The position numbers were made by a program, and so were the translations under genes. Positions 24,166-63,754 of a DNA stretch of 64,000 nt are shown piece by piece. The notes beneath the pieces are model-generated. The model had not been told where the DNA came from and did no database searches. It worked only from the letters and a program-made list of their open reading frames with translations. Source of the DNA: a virus (taxonomy: Duplodnaviria > Caudoviricetes); IMG/VR virus record IMGVR_UViG_3300020576_007701. One strand, 5' to 3'. Position 1 is the first letter of the stretch, and every line of letters starts with the position of its first letter.

Positions 24166-24215
24166 TTTACTTTATTTTGCTGTTAGCTATGATTATGTTT
24201 AAAAAAAACATATTC

Positions 24216-25409
24216 ATGGCAACAAACTTAAAAAATAAACGTGAGCGTATAACTCTTGTAAAAGACACAATAGACAAAAAAGATATTGACCATTTAATTA
24301 ATTGGTTAAAAACATACCCAAAACTTACAAAGGGCGAAAAAACAATTGAGTTTGAACAAGCTTGGTCAAAGTGGATTGGATGTAAATACTCAGTGTTTGT
24401 AAACTCAGGTTCTTCCGCAAATCTTTTAATGCTCTATGCATTAATAGAGCTTTATAAATTAAGAAATGGAAAGGTTGTTGTTCCATCTCTGGCTTGGGCC
24501 ACTGATTTAGCACCAGTGATTCAACTCGGTTTTCAACCACTTATTGTTGATTGCAATTTAGCGGACTTATCTGTTGACTTAGAACATTTGGAATATATTT
24601 TTATGAACGAACAACCTTCGGCAATGATTTTAGTTTCAGTTCTTGGTTTATCTCCAGATATGGATTCTGTTGTAAAACTTTGTAAAAAATATGGCGTTAT
24701 TTTACTTGAAGATAATTGTGAATCTCAAGGAACAATGTATAAAGGAAAAAAACTTGGAAATTTTGGCCTTATGTCTAGTTATTCAACATATTTTGGGCAT
24801 ACAATGAGCACAATTGAGGGCGGCATGATTTCAACAAATGATAGAGAAGTATACAATATGTTAAAACAACTTAGAAGTCATGGTTGGGATAGAGATTTAG
24901 ATGCCACAAGACAAGCTGAATTGAGAGAACAATGGGGTATAGATGACTTCGCAGCTTTGTACACTTTTTATGTGCCTGGTTTTAATGTTAGATCTACAGA
25001 TTTGCAAGCTGTAATAGGTTTAAAACAGCTTGAAAAAGTTGACGATATGATTGCTCAAAGAAATAAAAACTTTGAAATTTTTAAACAAAGGTTATCACCT
25101 TACACATGGTTCCCAACTGAGCAAGAAGAAAGTTTTACTGCAAGTTTTTGTATTCCAATAATAGCTGAAACAAAAGAAGAAAAAGATAGAATAGTAAAAA
25201 AATTAATAGAAAACAATGTTGAGTGTAGACCTTTAATATGTGGTTCAATGGGAACTCAACCATTTTTTGTAAAACATTTTGGTAGAGTTGCTTTAGAAAC
25301 AGTTACAAGAGTTGATGAGTGTGGTATGTATATTCCAAATCATCCACACCTTACAAAAGAAGAAATAGATCATATGTGTAATTGCATACTTAGCGCAATA
25401 GAAGAATAA
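24216..25409 (+). CDS. DegT/DnrJ-family PLP enzyme of His type: ColD-like GDP-4-keto-6-deoxymannose 3-dehydratase
   Basis: VNSGSSANL, EDNCES; SYSTYFGHTMSTIEGG has His at the usual Schiff-base Lys position; LRSHGW, GFNVRST. Likely start 24216. Confidence 0.8.
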   Translation: MATNLKNKRERITLVKDTIDKKDIDHLINWLKTYPKLTKGEKTIEFEQAWSKWIGCKYSVFVNSGSSANLLMLYALIELYKLRNGKVVVPSLAWATDLAPVIQLGFQPLIVDCNLADLSVDLEHLEYIFMNEQPSAMILVSVLGLSPDMDSVVKLCKKYGVILLEDNCESQGTMYKGKKLGNFGLMSSYSTYFGHTMSTIEGGMISTNDREVYNMLKQLRSHGWDRDLDATRQAELREQWGIDDFAALYTFYVPGFNVRSTDLQAVIGLKQLEKVDDMIAQRNKNFEIFKQRLSPYTWFPTEQEESFTASFCIPIIAETKEEKDRIVKKLIENNVECRPLICGSMGTQPFFVKHFGRVALETVTRVDECGMYIPNHPHLTKEEIDHMCNCILSAIEE

Positions 25410-25410
25410 T

Positions 25411-25647
25411 ATGAAGATAAATAAAATCGAAACATATCAAGATTTGCCTAAATATGGTAAATATGTGCTTGTAAGCGGAATCGACAAAGGAATGTATGAT
25501 GTTAGAAGGTGGCACGTTTGCGAAATGAATGACTTAGAAGATGGGTTAGATTATAGAGATAAAGGCCATTTTTTTTGGCTTACTGAAAAAGGAACTAAAA
25601 TAGACGAAGTTACACATTGGTGTGAATTACCAAATATACCACAGTAA
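25411..25647 (+). CDS. DUF551-like small phage protein
   Basis: LP..YVLV...VTHWCELP. Confidence 0.55.
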   Translation: MKINKIETYQDLPKYGKYVLVSGIDKGMYDVRRWHVCEMNDLEDGLDYRDKGHFFWLTEKGTKIDEVTHWCELPNIPQ

Positions 25648-25658
25648 AACTATACAAA

Positions 25659-26084
25659 ATGTTAACTATAAAAGAGTGGCTTTTAAAAAATAATCCAACT
25701 TTTAAAATAGATTGGAATATATTGGGTTGGCAAAACAATCCAAATTTTTTCGGAGATCAAAAAGAATGGAACAATGTGCTTCTCACAAAAATTAACGAAA
25801 TTTCAGCACATATACATATGGCCACATTATTAGGCGGTGCTGACACAATAGAAGTGCACCCAGATAATATGCATTTCATAGAAAGTTTTGACTACTATAA
25901 TGCAACAACAAAAACTATAGGGTTTAGATATTCCGTAATTGTAGATAATCTTATTTCTAAAAATACAATCAATGTGTATTTAAGTGAACAAGCTATAAGA
26001 AATTTTTATAAATTAAATAAAAAAGGGTTAGATATAGATTTTAAAAATACTTATGGGGTTATTACATTAATAAATGGAAATTAA
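25659..26084 (+). CDS. Stand-alone fragment resembling the axial domain of a T4-like major capsid protein
   Basis: QKEWNNVLLTKINEISAHIHMATLLGGAD...RYSVIVD resembles the gp23 segment LLFQIDKEAVEIARQTGRGEGN...KYRVYID (recalled, not searched). Confidence 0.45.
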   Translation: MLTIKEWLLKNNPTFKIDWNILGWQNNPNFFGDQKEWNNVLLTKINEISAHIHMATLLGGADTIEVHPDNMHFIESFDYYNATTKTIGFRYSVIVDNLISKNTINVYLSEQAIRNFYKLNKKGLDIDFKNTYGVITLINGN

Positions 26085-26117
26085 AAAACGGTTTTAATAA
26101 CTGGAATACCTGGCCAG
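26074..26117 (+). pseudogene. Relic original 5' end of gmd
   Basis: ATG GAA ATT AAA A[A]A ACG GTT TTA ATA ACT GGA ATA CCT GGC CAG reads MEIKKTVLITGIPGQ if one A is restored to the A6 run; matches the Gmd Rossmann start (ITGITGQDG). Confidence 0.75.
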
Positions 26118-26128
26118 AAATTTTACAC

Positions 26129-26136
26129 TATTTATA
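26129..26136 (+). promoter_or_regulatory. Putative late promoter TATTTATA (representative; about 18 copies listed in findings)
   Basis: The same sense-strand motif lies roughly 5-40 nt upstream of most structural and endonuclease genes. Confidence 0.6.
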
Positions 26137-26147
26137 ATAAAAATATT

Positions 26148-26984
26148 ATGAAAGAAGAAAACAAAAAAACAGGTATTAAAAAATGTAAACAGTGTTTTAA
26201 AGAATTTCAAATTAACTTGCGAAACAAAAGAAGTGCCAATAAAATATTTTGTTCATCAACATGTGCCAAAAAAAATAACGGCAAAAACAATAAAGGTAAA
26301 AAACGTTCTTTAAAATATAAAAGCATGATGAGTGAAAAAACTTCAGGGAAAAATAATGGTTTTTTCGGAAAGACACATTCTAAAAAATCAGTGCAAAAAA
26401 TGAGCAGTTCCAGTTTGTGGCAAGAAGACAAATTTAAATATTGTAATCTGAAAAACAAAGAAAAAGAGGTTTTAGATGGATTAATGCTTAGTGATGGTTG
26501 TTTGTCAGAAAAATCCAGAATATCAGCTAGACTAACTTTTGGATTTAAATTTAAAGAAACTTGTGAAGAAATATTTAAAACAATAAGTTCGTTAAATTTT
26601 TCTCCAATTTGGCAAAGCGAACAAACAAAATGTTGGCACACAAAATCAAATATGTATCATGATTTATTAGTTGAAAACAAAAGATGGTATCCACAAAAAG
26701 AAAAAATTGTACCATTAGATGTCTTGATTACTAAAACTTCTTGTTATTGGTGGTTTATAGGAGATGGCTATAATATTGATGGAAATGTGTATTTGTGCAC
26801 AGACTCCTTTTCTAAAAAAGATAATGTTTTTTTGATTAACAAATTAAAAGAGAACGGATTTAATCCTTCATTAACAAGCACAAATAGAATCAGATTCAAC
26901 AAAAAAGAAACAATACTTTTTTTAGAGTGGATAAAACCTGAAGGTGAAATAATGGAACAATATAAATATAAATGGAAAATATAA
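26148..26984 (+). mobile_element. Free-standing homing endonuclease gene: Zn finger + NUMOD3 + LAGLIDADG
   Basis: CKQC..FCSSTC, FFGKTHS, VLDGLMLSDG and WWFIGDG LAGLIDADG helices; TATTTATA at 26129-26136; stop overlaps the gmd start by 13 nt. Confidence 0.85.
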
Positions 26985-28000
26985 AACAAAAAAAGATAGC
27001 CCTTTGCTTCGGAATAACGGGACAAGACGGCTCGTATCTAGCAGAACTTCTACTTGAGAAAGGGTATGAAGTGCATGGAATTATCAGAAGATCTAGCAGT
27101 TTCAATACTGAAAGACTTGATCATATTTTTGACAAGCTAATATTGCATTATGGCGACGTAACGGACCCAGCTAGTACGACAAATTTAATAGCTACCATAA
27201 AGCCAGATGAAATTTATAACCTAGCCGCTCAATCACATGTTAAAGTTTCTTTTGAACAACCTTATTACACTGGAATGGTAGATGCTCTCGGAACACTTAC
27301 CATTCTTGAGGCTATGCGCATTCATTGCCCACAATCAAAATTTTATCAAGCCTCTACTTCTGAATTGTACGGTGGTATGACCTATAACATGCCACCAAAT
27401 GGCTACACTGAAGAGTCTGTATTTCACCCAAGAAGCCCTTATGGAGTTGCAAAAATTTATGGCTATTGGGCTGTTAAAAATTATCGTGAAGCTTATAATA
27501 TTTTTGCTTGTAACGGAATCTTATTTAACCATGAAAGCCCAAGACGTGGCGGCACCTTCGTAACAAAAAAAGTAATAAACAACCTTGTTGAAATTAAACA
27601 GGGTAAAAGAGAGGTATTGCATATCGGTAATTTGGATTCTAAGAGGGATTGGGGATATGCAAAAGATTATGTTGAAGGAATGTGGCTTATGCTGCAAAGA
27701 GATGTCCCAGAGGATTTTGTATTAGCTACAAACGAAGCACACTCAGTTCGTGAATTGATAGAATTAACAGCGGAGTCAATTGGTTATAAGATAGAGTGGA
27801 GAGGGTCTGGGCTAGACGAAAAAGGTTATGATGAAATAACTGGAAAATTACTTGTAGAGATTGATCAAAAATATTTCAGACCATCAGAGGTTGAGTTTCT
27901 TCTTGGTGATTCATCTAAAGCTAAGACAGATTTAGGTTGGGAGCCAAAGGTTAAGTTTAAAGACCTAGTTAGGCTAATGGTTTTGCATGAAATGTCTTAA
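26972..28000 (+). CDS. gmd: GDP-mannose 4,6-dehydratase
   Basis: [50 protein letters not shown]. Confidence 0.97.
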
Positions 28001-28084: not shown

Positions 28085-29650
28085 ATGAAAATAGAAGAGC
28101 TAACCGATAGTGACATTTCAAAGGTAAAAGAAATTTACACCAATCAATCCTTGACTTGGGATGATAAAACTGGAAAACTAAAAACACTATTTGGAGTAAA
28201 ATCTGAAAGAACCGTTAGACACTGGTTAGTCAAATTAGGTTTTAAAGAAAAAATGGCCGAAGAATCTGCAGATTATATGGCTGCTAAAAAGAAAAAGCTA
28301 GATAAGACAAAAAAGCGCTATATTGTTTCTTGGGCGCAAAACAATACACCACTTCATATTCCTTTTATGAGAAATATGGAAGCTTATGCTAAACACCTTA
28401 ACGCCTCGATACATGTAGTTGCTGGCAGATATAAAAACCCAACTTCAATTTTTCAAGATCGTGATGAAGAATATTGGGACACAGAATTGTTGGAAAAAAA
28501 TTATTTAGACGCAGCTCAGCATGATATTCATAAATTTTTAACTATTCTTGGTAATGTTAAAACGCAGCCTACGGCTATAAATCCACTTGAAGGTTTTGAA
28601 AGTTTTACAGCTGATAAATCTTGTATTGTTGGCCACCCAAAAGTTCAATTAAAAATGGTTCCAGTTTTAGAAAGTTACGTTCAAAAGATGATGGTAACTA
28701 CTGGAGCTTGTACAGAAAAAAATTATACAGATTCAAAAGCTGGAAAAAGAGGCGAATTTAATCACACACTTGGTTTTGTTATTGTTGAAATAAAAAACAA
28801 TGAAATATTTTTTCTTAGGCAAGTAACTGCTGACATCAATGGTAATTTTAACGACCTATACTACAATGTTACAAACAAAAAAGTAAAAACTAACAACAAA
28901 ATTGCGAGTTTGATCATGGGAGATATACATGTTGGAGACCATGACAAACAAGTTATTGATTCTACTTTAAATGTGCTGTGTAAAAAATTGCATCCAGACA
29001 ATATTGTAATGCACGATATTTTTAATGGACACTCTATTTCGCACCACGAACTAAATGACATCTTCCTTCAATACCAAAGAGATGTAGATGGAACAAACTC
29101 TTTACAAAGAGAATTTGATGAAATGTTGGTGTGGTTAGAACAATTTAAAAAACACAATGTGGTTATTGTAAAAAGTAACCATGATGATGTGGTAGACAAA
29201 TGGTTAAGACATAGCGATGCCAAACACATTAAGGCTAGTAAAAATTATTTATTGTTTACAGAATTATCTTCTATAATTATGCAAAACAAAGCGCCAAAAG
29301 GAATTGTGCCATATATTATAAATCAAAAATTTCCAAAAATTAAATGTCTTGGAAGAGACGATAGTTTTAGAGTAAAAGAATTTGAGTTGGGTGTACATGG
29401 CGATATTGGAGCTTCTGGAAGCAGAGGTTCAATTGGACAATACAGAAGACTAAATACAAAAATAGTAACTGGGCACAGTCATCAACCAGTCAGATTAGAT
29501 GGTTCTCTTTCAGTTGGAACTAGTACTAAGTTGAGGGTAAACTATAACAAGGGTCAAAGTGCCTGGTTGAATAGCCACGTGATTATACATGAGGATGGAA
29601 AAGCACAACATATAAATTTCATAAAGGGATGTTTTACCACCTTTAAATAA
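28085..29650 (+). CDS. HTH + calcineurin-like metallophosphoesterase
   Basis: SERTVRHW (HTH-like); GDIHVG, MHDIF, SNHDD, HGD, GHSH. Confidence 0.8.
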   Translation: MKIEELTDSDISKVKEIYTNQSLTWDDKTGKLKTLFGVKSERTVRHWLVKLGFKEKMAEESADYMAAKKKKLDKTKKRYIVSWAQNNTPLHIPFMRNMEAYAKHLNASIHVVAGRYKNPTSIFQDRDEEYWDTELLEKNYLDAAQHDIHKFLTILGNVKTQPTAINPLEGFESFTADKSCIVGHPKVQLKMVPVLESYVQKMMVTTGACTEKNYTDSKAGKRGEFNHTLGFVIVEIKNNEIFFLRQVTADINGNFNDLYYNVTNKKVKTNNKIASLIMGDIHVGDHDKQVIDSTLNVLCKKLHPDNIVMHDIFNGHSISHHELNDIFLQYQRDVDGTNSLQREFDEMLVWLEQFKKHNVVIVKSNHDDVVDKWLRHSDAKHIKASKNYLLFTELSSIIMQNKAPKGIVPYIINQKFPKIKCLGRDDSFRVKEFELGVHGDIGASGSRGSIGQYRRLNTKIVTGHSHQPVRLDGSLSVGTSTKLRVNYNKGQSAWLNSHVIIHEDGKAQHINFIKGCFTTFK

Positions 29651-30704
29651 AATTTAGTTTTTCAGTCACACCTTCATTATACTTAATTGTTAAAAGAGAA
29701 ATATTGTGCTCCTTGCAATATCTCTCTTTTATTTTGTCGTTAATTTTTCTATTTTTAAAACCTTCGATACCACCAAAATATTCTATAGGTTTATAATGTT
29801 GCATACCATTGTACTCAATGCATAAATTTTGTTTTGGAAGATAAAAATCGAAAGGTAAAGCTAATATATTTTTGCAATCCGCAAATTTATATTGAGAAAT
29901 ATATTCAATACCATTATTTTCAAGAAAGGTACGTATTTGAACTTCACCTGTTGATTCACCACAAGCTGGACATCCATTTCCATTTTTGTGATTATTAGGA
30001 GTTTGGCTAAATTCGCCATGATCTGGGCAAACAATAATTATTTTAGTATGCGCATTAATGTAATTCATTTTTGAATAATCATATTTTTTTCCATGAAACT
30101 CAGAAAAATATTTTAATATTTTTTCTTTTGTTAATTTTTCATTACCATAACACTTCTTGCAGCCTTGACCTTGTTTATGATTATTAAGTGTTTGTTGAAA
30201 CTCACCGTGTTCTTTGCAAATAATAGTAATTTTTTTATTTGTAATAACAGAATCCACTTTTGAATAATCATATTTATTGCTGTGTGTAATATTGCATTCG
30301 TTAATTACCTCCTGAAGTGTTAATTTTTTTCCTGCACATTTAGGACATCCACTTCCATTTTTATGCATACTAGGACTTTGTTCAAAAATACCATGTGTTT
30401 TACAAATTATTTTAATCTTCACATTATCACTGATATATTTTATATTTGAATAATCGTATTTTTTACCATGAACATCTACAAATTGTAATATTACTTTTTC
30501 TTTATCTAATTTATTGTAAATGCATTTAGGGCACCCATTTCCTCTTTTGTGATTACAAGGCAATTGTTCAAATTCGCCATGTTCTTTACATATAACTTTA
30601 ACTTTAGTTCTAGCATTTACATAGTTCACAAGATCATATGAATATTTTTCTCCATGAATTTTTTCAGCTGCTAAAATAAATTCATTATTTTTTTTGTTTT
30701 TCAT
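29643..30704 (-). mobile_element. Free-standing endonuclease gene: four Zn-ribbon (DUF723-like) repeats + PD-(D/E)XK/Vsr-like nuclease
   Basis: Four repeats of H..KYDYS....IICxxHGxF.Q....H..GxGCxxC; FDFYLP..CIEYNGMQHY. Likely start ATG 30704 after TATTTATA (30723-30730, minus). Confidence 0.8.
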
Positions 30705-30786
30705 AAAAAATTTTTTATATTTTATAAATAGTAGAAAAAATGTTATTATACGATAATTTTTTAAAAGGCTAATAAGCAACAAAAAA

Positions 30787-62762: not shown

Positions 62763-62792
62763 ATGAAAATTGCACATTTAGCGGATATACAA
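62763..62792 (+). pseudogene. Relic original 5' end of the SbcD/Mre11 gene (MKIAHLADIQ)
   Basis: Ten codons matching the downstream gene start MRICHLADIQ; the frame then runs into unrelated sequence and stops at 62846. Confidence 0.88.
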
Positions 62793-63754
62793 TTATTTAT
62801 TTGTGAATGTCAAATATCTATGCTTTTTTATCATATTTATCAATAAAAACAAATTATGATAAAATGTGAAATATGCAAACAAGAGTTTAAACAAATTAGT
62901 AATACCCATTTAATTGAACACAATATAGATAAAAATGAATATAGAAGACTTTTTCCAGAAGCAAAATTGAAAAGTGTTTGGAATTTAGGCTTAAATAAAG
63001 AAAGCGATAAGAGGGTTCTAAAAAACGCCTTGGCGCTTAAAGCTAATCACTGGGTTAAAGACGAAGAAAAAAAGAAAAACATATCTAATAAAATAAGTCT
63101 TAGTAAGACTGGAGGTAAAATAAGTGAGAAAATTAAAGAACAATTCAGGCAAAAATATAAAGGTCAAGGCAATCCAAATTTTGGTAACACATGGTCTGAT
63201 GAACAAAAAAAAGAATCATCTGATAGAATGAAAGAAAAATATAAAGATCCAGAATATGTTGAAAAGTTTAAAAATTCTCATTGGAGTAACAATGAAGAAA
63301 AAAAACAAATAGTCACAAAAAAAGCTTCAGAGTATATAGCAAATGCAATTAGTTTAGGGATAATTAAAATTAATACTGGATATAAATGCGGCTGGATTTA
63401 TTCTGAAAAAATGAAACAAGAATTTTATTACATGTCTTCTTACGAACTTAGAAGAATGATTTTATTAGAAAAATCAGAATTGGTAAAAGAGTATACAAAC
63501 AAACATGGAATAAAATTGCAATACAATAATAAAAAAGGTGGTTTATCTTATTATATACCAGATATTTTAATTACATTTTACAATGGGGATGTACGTTTAG
63601 AAGAGGTAAAGGGCTATGTAAGAGATAAAGATGTTTTTACATTAAAAAATGAAGTTGCAAAATCATATTGTAAAGAAAATAATATAGAGTATAAAATAAT
63701 ATTTAAAAAAGATATAGAAAATTTATGAGAATTTGTCATTTAGCGGATATACAA
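62775..63754 (+). repeat. Perfect 18-bp direct repeat CATTTAGCGGATATACAA flanking the endonuclease cassette
   Basis: Copies at 62775-62792 and 63737-63754, 962 nt apart. Confidence 0.95.
62856..63728 (+). mobile_element. Free-standing endonuclease gene: C2H2-like Zn finger + NUMOD3-like + TnsA-like PD-(D/E)XK nuclease
   Basis: CEICK..THL..H, GNPNFG..WSDE, YMSSYELR, YIPDILI...LEEVKG; TATTTAT at 62834-62840; ATGA overlap with sbcD. Confidence 0.8.

Follow-up and report, generated by a model that had tools for sequence, protein, structure and literature searches.

Results

A homing endonuclease gene between two starts of gmd. How can an endonuclease gene lie across the most conserved motif of another gene and still leave a complete copy of that gene behind it? 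The locus that raises this question contains the gene for GDP-mannose 4,6-dehydratase (gmd) of a virus of the Caudoviricetes (Duplodnaviria). The window, that is, the whole stretch of 64,000 nucleotides (nt) analyzed here, comprises bases 32001 to 96000 of the 153-kb IMG/VR virus record IMGVR_UViG_3300020576_007701, which is estimated to be about half complete and has a G+C content of 32%. An open reading frame (ORF) for a LAGLIDADG endonuclease is located between a short, decayed gmd start (here called the relic) and the working gmd. We consider it probable (roughly 85%) that a site-specific homing endonuclease cassette of ~0.9 kb (positions 26118 to 27025) has entered the NAD(P)-binding GxTGQDG loop of gmd between the Gln and Asp codons and has brought a substitute start that replaces the native one. 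Insertion that is site specific and free of splicing is supported by the position of all 12 sampled endonuclease lineages on gmd starts, by the relics, by a pair of loci with and without the endonuclease (L100 and L005), by remnants of the endonuclease 3' end, by conflicting trees, by a cassette-like 5' tract in gmd, and by the absence of intron or intein signals.

The relic starts with an ATG at position 26074 and reads MEIKK; after a shift of 1 nt in a run of A residues (26083 to 26088), it continues as TVLITGIPGQ and ends with a CAG codon (26115 to 26117). Its changes are a 1-nt deletion in the A run and a Thr-to-Pro substitution. The motif TATTTATA (26129 to 26136) follows 11 nt past the relic end. 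It occurs 25 times in the window against 13.6 occurrences expected, and in the spacer it would be a putative promoter at most. A spacer block (AAATTTT...CTATTTA...ATG) is common to the related loci L082, L090, L095, and L097. The endonuclease gene is placed between the Gln and Asp codons of the loop, and the ATG of the working gmd sits inside its Lys-Trp codons, resulting in a 13-nt overlap between the two genes. The working gmd matches the Pfam family PF16363 over positions 1 to 332 of 332 (E value, 4.5e-136), and its GITGQDG motif is intact. The motif ATAAATGGAAA is present at both ATGs (26070 to 26080 and 26968 to 26978) and extends to a direct repeat with 18 of 20 positions equal. This layout (relic, 1-nt loss, TATTTATA 11 nt on, LAGLIDADG ORF, internal gmd restart, and ATAAATGGAAA at both ATGs) had been described in an earlier sequence-only reading of the window, which proved correct in every detail.

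The relic is related to the start of gmd. A scoring matrix was built from 36 distinct Gmd N termini, and all six frames of the 153-kb record were scanned with it. The true gmd start ranked first with 31.6 bits, and the relic was second in the whole record with 25.5 bits, while the third-ranked match (13.2 bits) comes from another Rossmann enzyme. In 40 random genomes of equal size, the best scores had a mean of 11.5 and a maximum of 16.8. Comparison of the relic with a Gmd N-terminal profile had been set beforehand as a check on the sequence-only reading, and the score is far above random.

An endonuclease-free relative, L101, was found via a 60% homologue of the 141-amino-acid (aa) ORF that precedes the relic, in a large protein collection. 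A search of IMG/VR with the same ORF gave no relative, and a search of deposited phages gave only gmd bodies at 64% to 78% nucleotide identity, without synteny. The gene order in L101 is DegT, a 134-aa ORF, gmd, and a 521-aa gene. Its small ORF leads directly into an intact gmd with a 4-nt overlap, mirroring the overlap of the relic ATG with the stop codon of the 141-aa ORF in the window, and the L101 gmd start reads MKNKKTALIAGITGQDG. The small ORF adjoins gmd likewise in the P0071 contig. From GQDG onward, the Gmd protein of the window is 92% identical to that of L101 and 88% identical to that of L002, another relative without the endonuclease.

In the DNA alignment, the left flanks of L101 and the window are homologous through the end of the small ORF and the relic, and the homology breaks at the Gln codon. 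Because it is continuous through the relic and stops at this codon, the relic is, as judged from the alignment, the native start of this gmd lineage. The relic and the L101 start are equal at 10 of 15 residues and 32 of 45 nt (counted by hand). The 1-nt loss is borne out by the intact orthologous start of L101, which has seven A residues in the run compared to six in the window. A second pair of loci gives the same picture: L100, which has the endonuclease, and its gmd sister L005, which lacks it, share the same upstream epimerase gene, and the native start of L005 occupies the position of the decayed relic of L100.

Had L101 shared the sequence upstream of the working gmd and the LCFG at its start, the replacement proposed in the sequence-only reading would have been in doubt; it shares neither, and its intact native start is the counterpart of the relic. 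LCFG had itself been put forward in that reading as a sign of replacement. It is really atypical, but it is not evidence of replacement, since endonuclease-free L002 has ICFG and L017 has LIFG; in addition, the intact relic of L003 has IIFG. The residue preceding this glycine varies in this phage clade with or without the cassette (native starts have A, F, or T). We thus rejected LCFG as a mark of replacement and regard it as a trait of the gmd genes of this clade. L002, in which the DegT stop codon overlaps the gmd ATG, was also considered as a refutation of the replacement and set aside: the native starts of L101 and L003 vary at this residue, and the relic matches L101.

The endonuclease family occupies one site and is found in various stages of decay. 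We identified 67 homologues of the endonuclease (38% to 74% identity); a broader IMG/VR search with the endonuclease alignment returned no loci beyond the same four. Twelve lineages were sampled: the window, L082, L090, L091, L095, L097, L098, L099, L100, L104, L105, and a remnant in L003. In every one of them the endonuclease sits on the gmd start and overlaps it, whereas the upstream neighbors are of at least five kinds, including DegT with various small ORFs, GLF (UDP-galactopyranose) mutase, an epimerase, a PfkB-like gene, and unknown ORFs. The distribution of the endonuclease among related gmd alleles is patchy.

A Gmd-like relic lies 13 to 35 nt 5' of the endonuclease ATG in 9 of the 12 lineages; it is weak in L104, and none is visible in L098 and L105. 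The relics of L099 and L003 are fully intact in-frame short ORFs that end at the Gln codon, followed in L099 by five more codons and then a stop and in L003 by an immediate stop. Stop codons also directly follow the relics of L090, L097, and L104. The ends of these relics define the boundary of the Gln and Asp codons as the point of insertion. Only remnants of the endonuclease are present in L003 (both ends kept, middle deleted), L021, L061, L016, and L084/L085. A ten-residue matrix scan of all loci was discarded; it missed relics interrupted by stop codons (L082 and L095), and its null distribution was contaminated by real gmd starts.

Two of the loci have a broken gmd. L091 (3300 to 4450; also L092 to L094) represents an abundant phage whose endonuclease, P0005, is found on 24 contigs. 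Its cassette-borne gmd ATG is out of frame with the following N-terminal codons at a run of seven A residues, and the gmd body is divided into 257-aa and 110-aa pieces in different frames. This gmd is either decaying after invasion or in need of frameshifting. L104 (3225 to 4350) encodes the most distant endonuclease homologue (38% identity), also on a gmd, which is here divided between two frames (151 aa and 239 aa).

The replacement start travels with the endonuclease gene. The conserved C-terminal codons of the endonuclease (...YKYKW...) contain the working gmd ATG or immediately precede it in every lineage, and the junction is homologous. The replacement start of the window aligns with the cassette end of L090 and not with the native start of L101. 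Even the freshest relics (L099 and L003), which are intact, are strongly unlike the adjoining working copy, ruling out a target-site duplication at each insertion. The working N terminus of L099 resembles those of L021 and L061, which keep only the last ~28 to 60 endonuclease codons. These comparisons assign the replacement start to the cassette. The endonuclease 3' end persists through decay because it now carries the gmd start.

Of the two occurrences of ATAAATGGAAA, one is probably native and the other part of the cassette, with separate origins; their agreement would reflect coincidence or microhomology and not duplication, because L101 has a different native version and the endonuclease family has conserved the cassette version. 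A further motif, TATAAATA, is found on the plus strand at 26961 to 26968, inside the conserved YKYKW codons, and ends 3 nt before the gmd ATG; we take it to be the T4 late-promoter consensus. These codons may be under a double constraint, as protein and as signal. A scan for sigma-70-type promoters and terminators gave counts no better than chance.

The protein is predicted to be an I-SceI-like nuclease with a DNA-binding arm. The 278-aa ORF matches LAGLIDADG_2 (PF03161) with 57.4 bits against a cutoff of 25 (E value, 2.2e-15), and it also contains a segment matching NUMOD3 (PF07460). Two LAGLIDADG motifs are located around residues 108 to 117 and 200 to 207, each with a conserved acidic residue. 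D116, D206, and four N-terminal cysteines are invariant in 37 homologues. The ratio of nonsynonymous to synonymous divergence (dN/dS) is ~0.1 to 0.2, with dS saturated, which suggests that the endonuclease is under purifying selection.

A single-sequence search of solved structures with the endonuclease gave no match, but a family profile matched I-SceI over nearly the full length (E value, 7e-8), and residues 50 to 94 matched the I-TevI DNA-binding domain (E value, 1e-3). The AlphaFold model (mean predicted local distance difference test [pLDDT] score, 91.7) has as its best matches I-WcaI (E value, 2.5e-10; template modeling [TM] score by target, 0.66) and I-SceI, and the predicted fold is a two-fold pseudosymmetric alpha-beta-beta-alpha-beta-beta-alpha arrangement. 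Because of the profile matches and the model, the protein is predicted to be a monomeric I-SceI-like LAGLIDADG nuclease with a zinc-finger/NUMOD3 DNA-binding arm. The nuclease probably remains active, because the catalytic Asp residues and the zinc-finger cysteines are invariant, selection appears to be purifying, and the confident model matches I-SceI and I-WcaI. The family profile, the two motifs, the modeled fold, and, indirectly, the mobility described below are all as expected for a LAGLIDADG homing endonuclease.

I-SceI and I-WcaI are monomeric LAGLIDADG enzymes encoded in mitochondrial rRNA introns. Like the enzyme of the window, they have two LAGLIDADG motifs in one chain, and they are the best profile and fold matches for residues ~84 to 271. 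However, the identity is only ~20%, and the enzyme of the window has in addition the N-terminal Cys4 finger and the NUMOD3 segment and is not intron encoded.

Conflicting trees and a 5' tract point to mobility. In the Gmd tree, the window groups with L101 (support values, 95/91) and then with L002 (100/98), and L090 and L097 are sisters (97/92); alleles with and without the homing endonuclease gene (HEG) are interleaved. In contrast, the endonuclease tree joins the window with L090 (100/100) and places L097 far off. Approximately unbiased (AU) tests rejected the grouping of L090 with L097 on the endonuclease data (P = 0.0018) and the grouping of the window with L090 on the Gmd data (P = 0.027).

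The working gmd also has a short 5' segment resembling that of the cassette-bearing relatives. Informative sites were defined as positions where L101 and L090 (or L097) differ, and permutation was done over all 5' prefixes. Within the first 69 nt from the GITG codons, the window is equal to L090 at 11 of 13 informative sites, compared to 65 of 193 in the rest of the gene (P = 0.005). When L097 was used, the window agreed with it at 8 of 9 sites within the first 53 to 69 nt and at 56 of 183 in the rest (P = 0.013). Sliding nucleotide identity showed no visible breakpoint, and the tract is detected only by the informative-site test. The segment at ~27011 to 27080 is probably a short co-conversion tract. 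Such tracts are commonly left when an endonuclease-bearing donor serves as the repair template. The splicing-free intragenic homing with a replaced N terminus that the sequence-only reading had suggested is thus supported by site specificity, relics, remnants, tree conflict, and the 5' tract.

Proposed course of invasion. The cassette would consist of the conserved upstream spacer, the nuclease gene, a new gmd start codon in or just after the last nuclease codons, and ~18 substitute gmd codons. Its insertion would sever the native start, from ATG to the Gln codon, from the rest of the gene, and the severed start would decay upstream as the relic. Gmd would be translated from the cassette ATG, and neither RNA nor protein splicing would be needed. 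In a mixed infection, the nuclease would cut an endonuclease-free gmd at the DNA encoding G-I-T-G-Q/D-G-S-Y, and repair from the cassette-bearing genome would copy the cassette together with some tens of bases of flanking gmd.

Several observations weigh against this interpretation or limit it. The sequence re-formed at the working junction closely resembles the presumed target, so that the carrier would have to escape its own enzyme; the junction of L100 differs from the native site of L005 by 1 base in the 30 nt (10 codons) from the GITG codons. Such near identity means that self-immunity would lie elsewhere or that the target is not where we have placed it. Synonymous divergence is saturated (dS of >1) even between the closest endonucleases; no transfer of recent date has been caught, and the distribution could be old in large part. 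The groups compared in the AU tests were named after the trees had been seen, and the P value on the gmd side was only 0.027. Finally, the source phage is uncultured and known from one assembly, and the 1-nt deletion of the relic falls in a homopolymer, where an assembly error is conceivable.

With regard to immunity, alleles whose endonuclease is intact have a patch of G/C-ending codons around the insertion site (26993 to 27080 in the window; also L090, L095, L098, and L105). In the window, the patch has a G+C content of 45%; the values for gmd as a whole and for the genome are 37% and 32%, respectively. When the G+C content at third codon positions (GC3) of 29 codons around the site was compared with that of the rest of the gene, the mean difference was +0.06 for alleles with an intact HEG and -0.03 and -0.04 for HEG-free and remnant alleles, respectively (one-sided Mann-Whitney test, P = 0.006, uncorrected for relatedness). 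The raised GC3 would fit synonymous respelling for immunity, as a hint and not more, because the junction of L100 differs from that of L005 by a single base.

A more far-reaching version is that the cassette forms a complete, self-sufficient 5'-end homing unit, as has been shown at 3' ends for the WHO elements of yeasts (see below). Its start would be respelled and nuclease resistant, its relic would act as the left homology arm and stay recognizable because every homing event renews it, and the two copies would permit precise excision. We regard this as a tentative proposal, somewhat short of even odds. If true, the resistant respelled start would explain the G/C-ending codons at 26993 to 27034 and the raised GC3 in intact-endonuclease alleles, and precise excision would regenerate susceptible alleles, sustaining a cycle of invasion, decay, and loss.

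Alternative explanations. The relic might be more than a leftover, serving as a left homology arm, as a nuclease operator, or as an N-terminal extension of the nuclease reached by a -1 slip on the A run. In Torulaspora and Lachancea yeasts, FBA1 is the homing site of the WHO elements (Coughlan et al. 2020, PMC7282813), and the model for them gives the displaced FBA1 fragment exactly the role of a homology arm and lets the element-borne end confer resistance (PMC7282813). The gmd relic motif is recognizable in 9 or 10 of the 12 lineages despite an endonuclease dS of >1, and the relics differ from each other largely at third codon positions; this variation is, however, equally expected if each relic recently sampled a different functional gmd. 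In the window, the 141-aa ORF, the relic, and the endonuclease ORF share one frame, with a single TAA (26082 to 26084) between them and the A run just after it, and no stop codon separates the relic from the endonuclease. This arrangement is not kept in the relatives, where the frames differ by lineage and an immediate stop (TGA or TAA) follows the relic in L003, L090, L097, and L104. A programmed frameshift fusing relic and nuclease was therefore rated low. Moreover, L098 and L105 have no visible relic, yet their endonucleases are intact. Altogether, a functional relic appears unlikely, although it fares best among the alternatives.

A history of one ancient insertion followed by vertical descent, in which the HEG-free alleles (L101, L002, and L005) arose by precise recombination between relic and replacement and homing has ceased, is less probable still. 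The saturated dS of the endonucleases would fit it, as would the lack of near-identical endonucleases in two different backgrounds and the frequency of loss, as seen from the remnants. Since the cassette is bracketed by direct repeats, the relic on one side and the replacement copy on the other, a vertical history with precise deletions is possible for part of the distribution. As an account of the whole, it conflicts with the supported disagreement between the trees and with the AU tests, which reject the congruent groupings. The window carries the 5' tract of cassette-like sequence, the upstream neighbors are of at least five kinds, and the relic matches the local native allele in both testable pairs. 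A nuclease under purifying selection with intact catalytic residues also argues against it.

It is very improbable that a group I intron or an intein houses the endonuclease ORF, with Gmd spliced from the upstream start. LAGLIDADG genes are typical of such elements, as is insertion in a highly conserved motif, but a complete second start and N terminus follow the endonuclease in every lineage, and the spacer from the relic to the ORF is no longer than 30 nt, with no spacer at all on the 3' side of the ORF. The relic of the window is frameshifted, and stops or frame changes separate relic and ORF in relatives. An Rfam search of 25600 to 27400 at E values up to 1 gave no family, and a Pfam scan gave no Hint or intein domain. 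Chance resemblance of a 10- to 15-residue peptide in an A+T-rich spacer to the Gmd start can practically be dismissed in view of the relic score (25.5 bits against a maximum of 16.8 in the random genomes), its orthology to the real start of L101, and its recurrence at the same place in most family members.

Gene order and neighboring genes. The features of the locus, for which insertion of a homing endonuclease cassette is the preferred explanation, are listed in Table 1.

Table 1. Features of the gmd locus, with positions in the window
Feature	Position	Strand	Remarks
DegT-family aminotransferase gene	24177-25409		Upstream of gmd
DUF551-like ORF	25411-25647		Between the DegT gene and gmd
Native upstream neighbor, 141-aa ORF	25659-26084	+	No Pfam family; stop codon overlaps the orphaned gmd ATG
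Relic, apparent orphaned native gmd start (ATG to Gln codon of GxTGQDG)	26074-26117	+	
Left end of the putative cassette, conserved spacer 5' of the endonuclease gene	26118-26147	+	Holds TATTTATA
Predicted homing endonuclease gene, 278 aa	26148-26984	+	LAGLIDADG_2, NUMOD3, Cys4 zinc finger
Putative cassette-borne replacement gmd start, first 18 codons (Met to Gln)	26972-27025	+	
Probable co-conversion tract in gmd beyond the insertion point	27026-27080	+	Tested segment begins at the GITG codons (27011)
Working gmd, GDP-mannose 4,6-dehydratase, 342 aa	26972-28000	+	PF16363

The DegT-family protein reads ...YFGHTMSTIEGG..., with a His at the usual position of the pyridoxal phosphate-binding lysine of these aminotransferases, as in the ColD 3-dehydratase. 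This gmd may accordingly feed a GDP-colitose pathway. On the minus strand at 29643 to 30782, a gene abutting the 3' end of the conserved 521-aa gene encodes a 379-aa protein with repeated treble-clef zinc-finger modules (DUF4379 and DUF723), which is probably another free-standing endonuclease. In L082 (149 to 1141), L090 (1 to 920), and L095 (92 to 1087), a further ORF of ~330 aa with weak AP2 or NUMOD3 matches is located just 5' of DegT. Because of these extra ORFs in several relatives, the sugar gene cluster appears to be a hotspot for mobile nucleases.

Discussion

Comparison with other terminus-replacing elements. The closest parallels known to us come from fungi. Mobile ORFs (mORFs) of fungal mitochondria make hybrid genes, as in the atp6 gene of Allomyces macrogynus (according to the original report as cited in PMC3630166) and in atp6, atp9, cox2, and nad3 of Glomus (PMC3630166). 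As in the window, an intron-free LAGLIDADG or GIY-YIG ORF invades a protein gene and brings a foreign terminus, which is now expressed, while the displaced native terminus decays and matches a close relative and the inserted copy is divergent (PMC3630166). Unlike in the window, the 3' end is replaced, the ORF is sometimes fused in frame, and the host is an organelle (PMC3630166). Here, it is the 5' end that is replaced, the element supplies a start codon inside the last codons of the nuclease, and the host is a bacterial virus.

The WHO elements share with the window the lack of splicing, the replacement of a gene end at each integration, a displaced fragment beside the nuclease gene, and nuclease genes that become pseudogenes (PMC7282813). 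They differ in having intein-derived nucleases with fused zinc fingers, in replacing the 3' end, and in that experiments have demonstrated allele-specific cleavage as well as immunity of the resistant FBA1 end through synonymous respelling (PMC7282813). In the gmd cassette, resistance and the role of the relic as an arm are only suggested, and no tandem cluster of relics was seen. Like the fungal elements, it has two copies of a terminus, of which the contiguous one is working and the displaced one appears native, and it departs from them in the end that is replaced. Judged by its sequence features, the element is a mirror-image, 5'-end variant of the 3'-end-replacing elements, found in a phage.

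Among phages, the free-standing seg and mob endonucleases of T4-like phages carry out "intronless homing," in which they cut a nearby conserved gene in endonuclease-free relatives and co-convert the flanks. In phage Aeh1, mobE reportedly splits nrdA. These too are phage-borne endonuclease genes without introns, but they lie between genes or split a gene into two working pieces, whereas the element of the window orphans the start of a gene and supplies a replacement. We know of no endonuclease of the seg or mob type that does so. Our literature searches found no description of a start-replacing endonuclease cassette in a phage, and absence from searches is not proof.

Implications. The prevailing view is that a homing endonuclease spares its host gene only by residing in an intron, an intein, or an intergenic site. 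The gmd cassettes would represent a third route in phages, with many natural replicates, in which a conserved coding motif is entered at the price of a new start and new first codons. The inferred target of this I-SceI-like enzyme lies in the very conserved glycine-rich nucleotide-binding loop of Gmd, which may interest enzyme engineers. For annotation, the finding explains orphan mini-ORFs and odd N termini beside endonuclease genes and implies that such genes may have first codons of foreign origin.

A brief look at sbcD in the same genome showed a layout matching that of gmd, as the sequence-only reading had noted. An orphan start of ten codons (62763 to 62792) is followed by a 290-aa ORF (62856 to 63728), whose stop codon is overlapped by the working start (63725), and the first ten residues of the working gene are nearly those of the orphan start. 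Because sbcD has this layout with a different endonuclease gene, start-replacing cassettes may be a general, so far undescribed route by which endonucleases enter the 5' ends of phage genes. The gmd loci moreover provide a natural time series, in which the relic passes from intact through frameshifted to absent and the nuclease from intact to a remnant, and which could be used to study the life cycle of a selfish nuclease.

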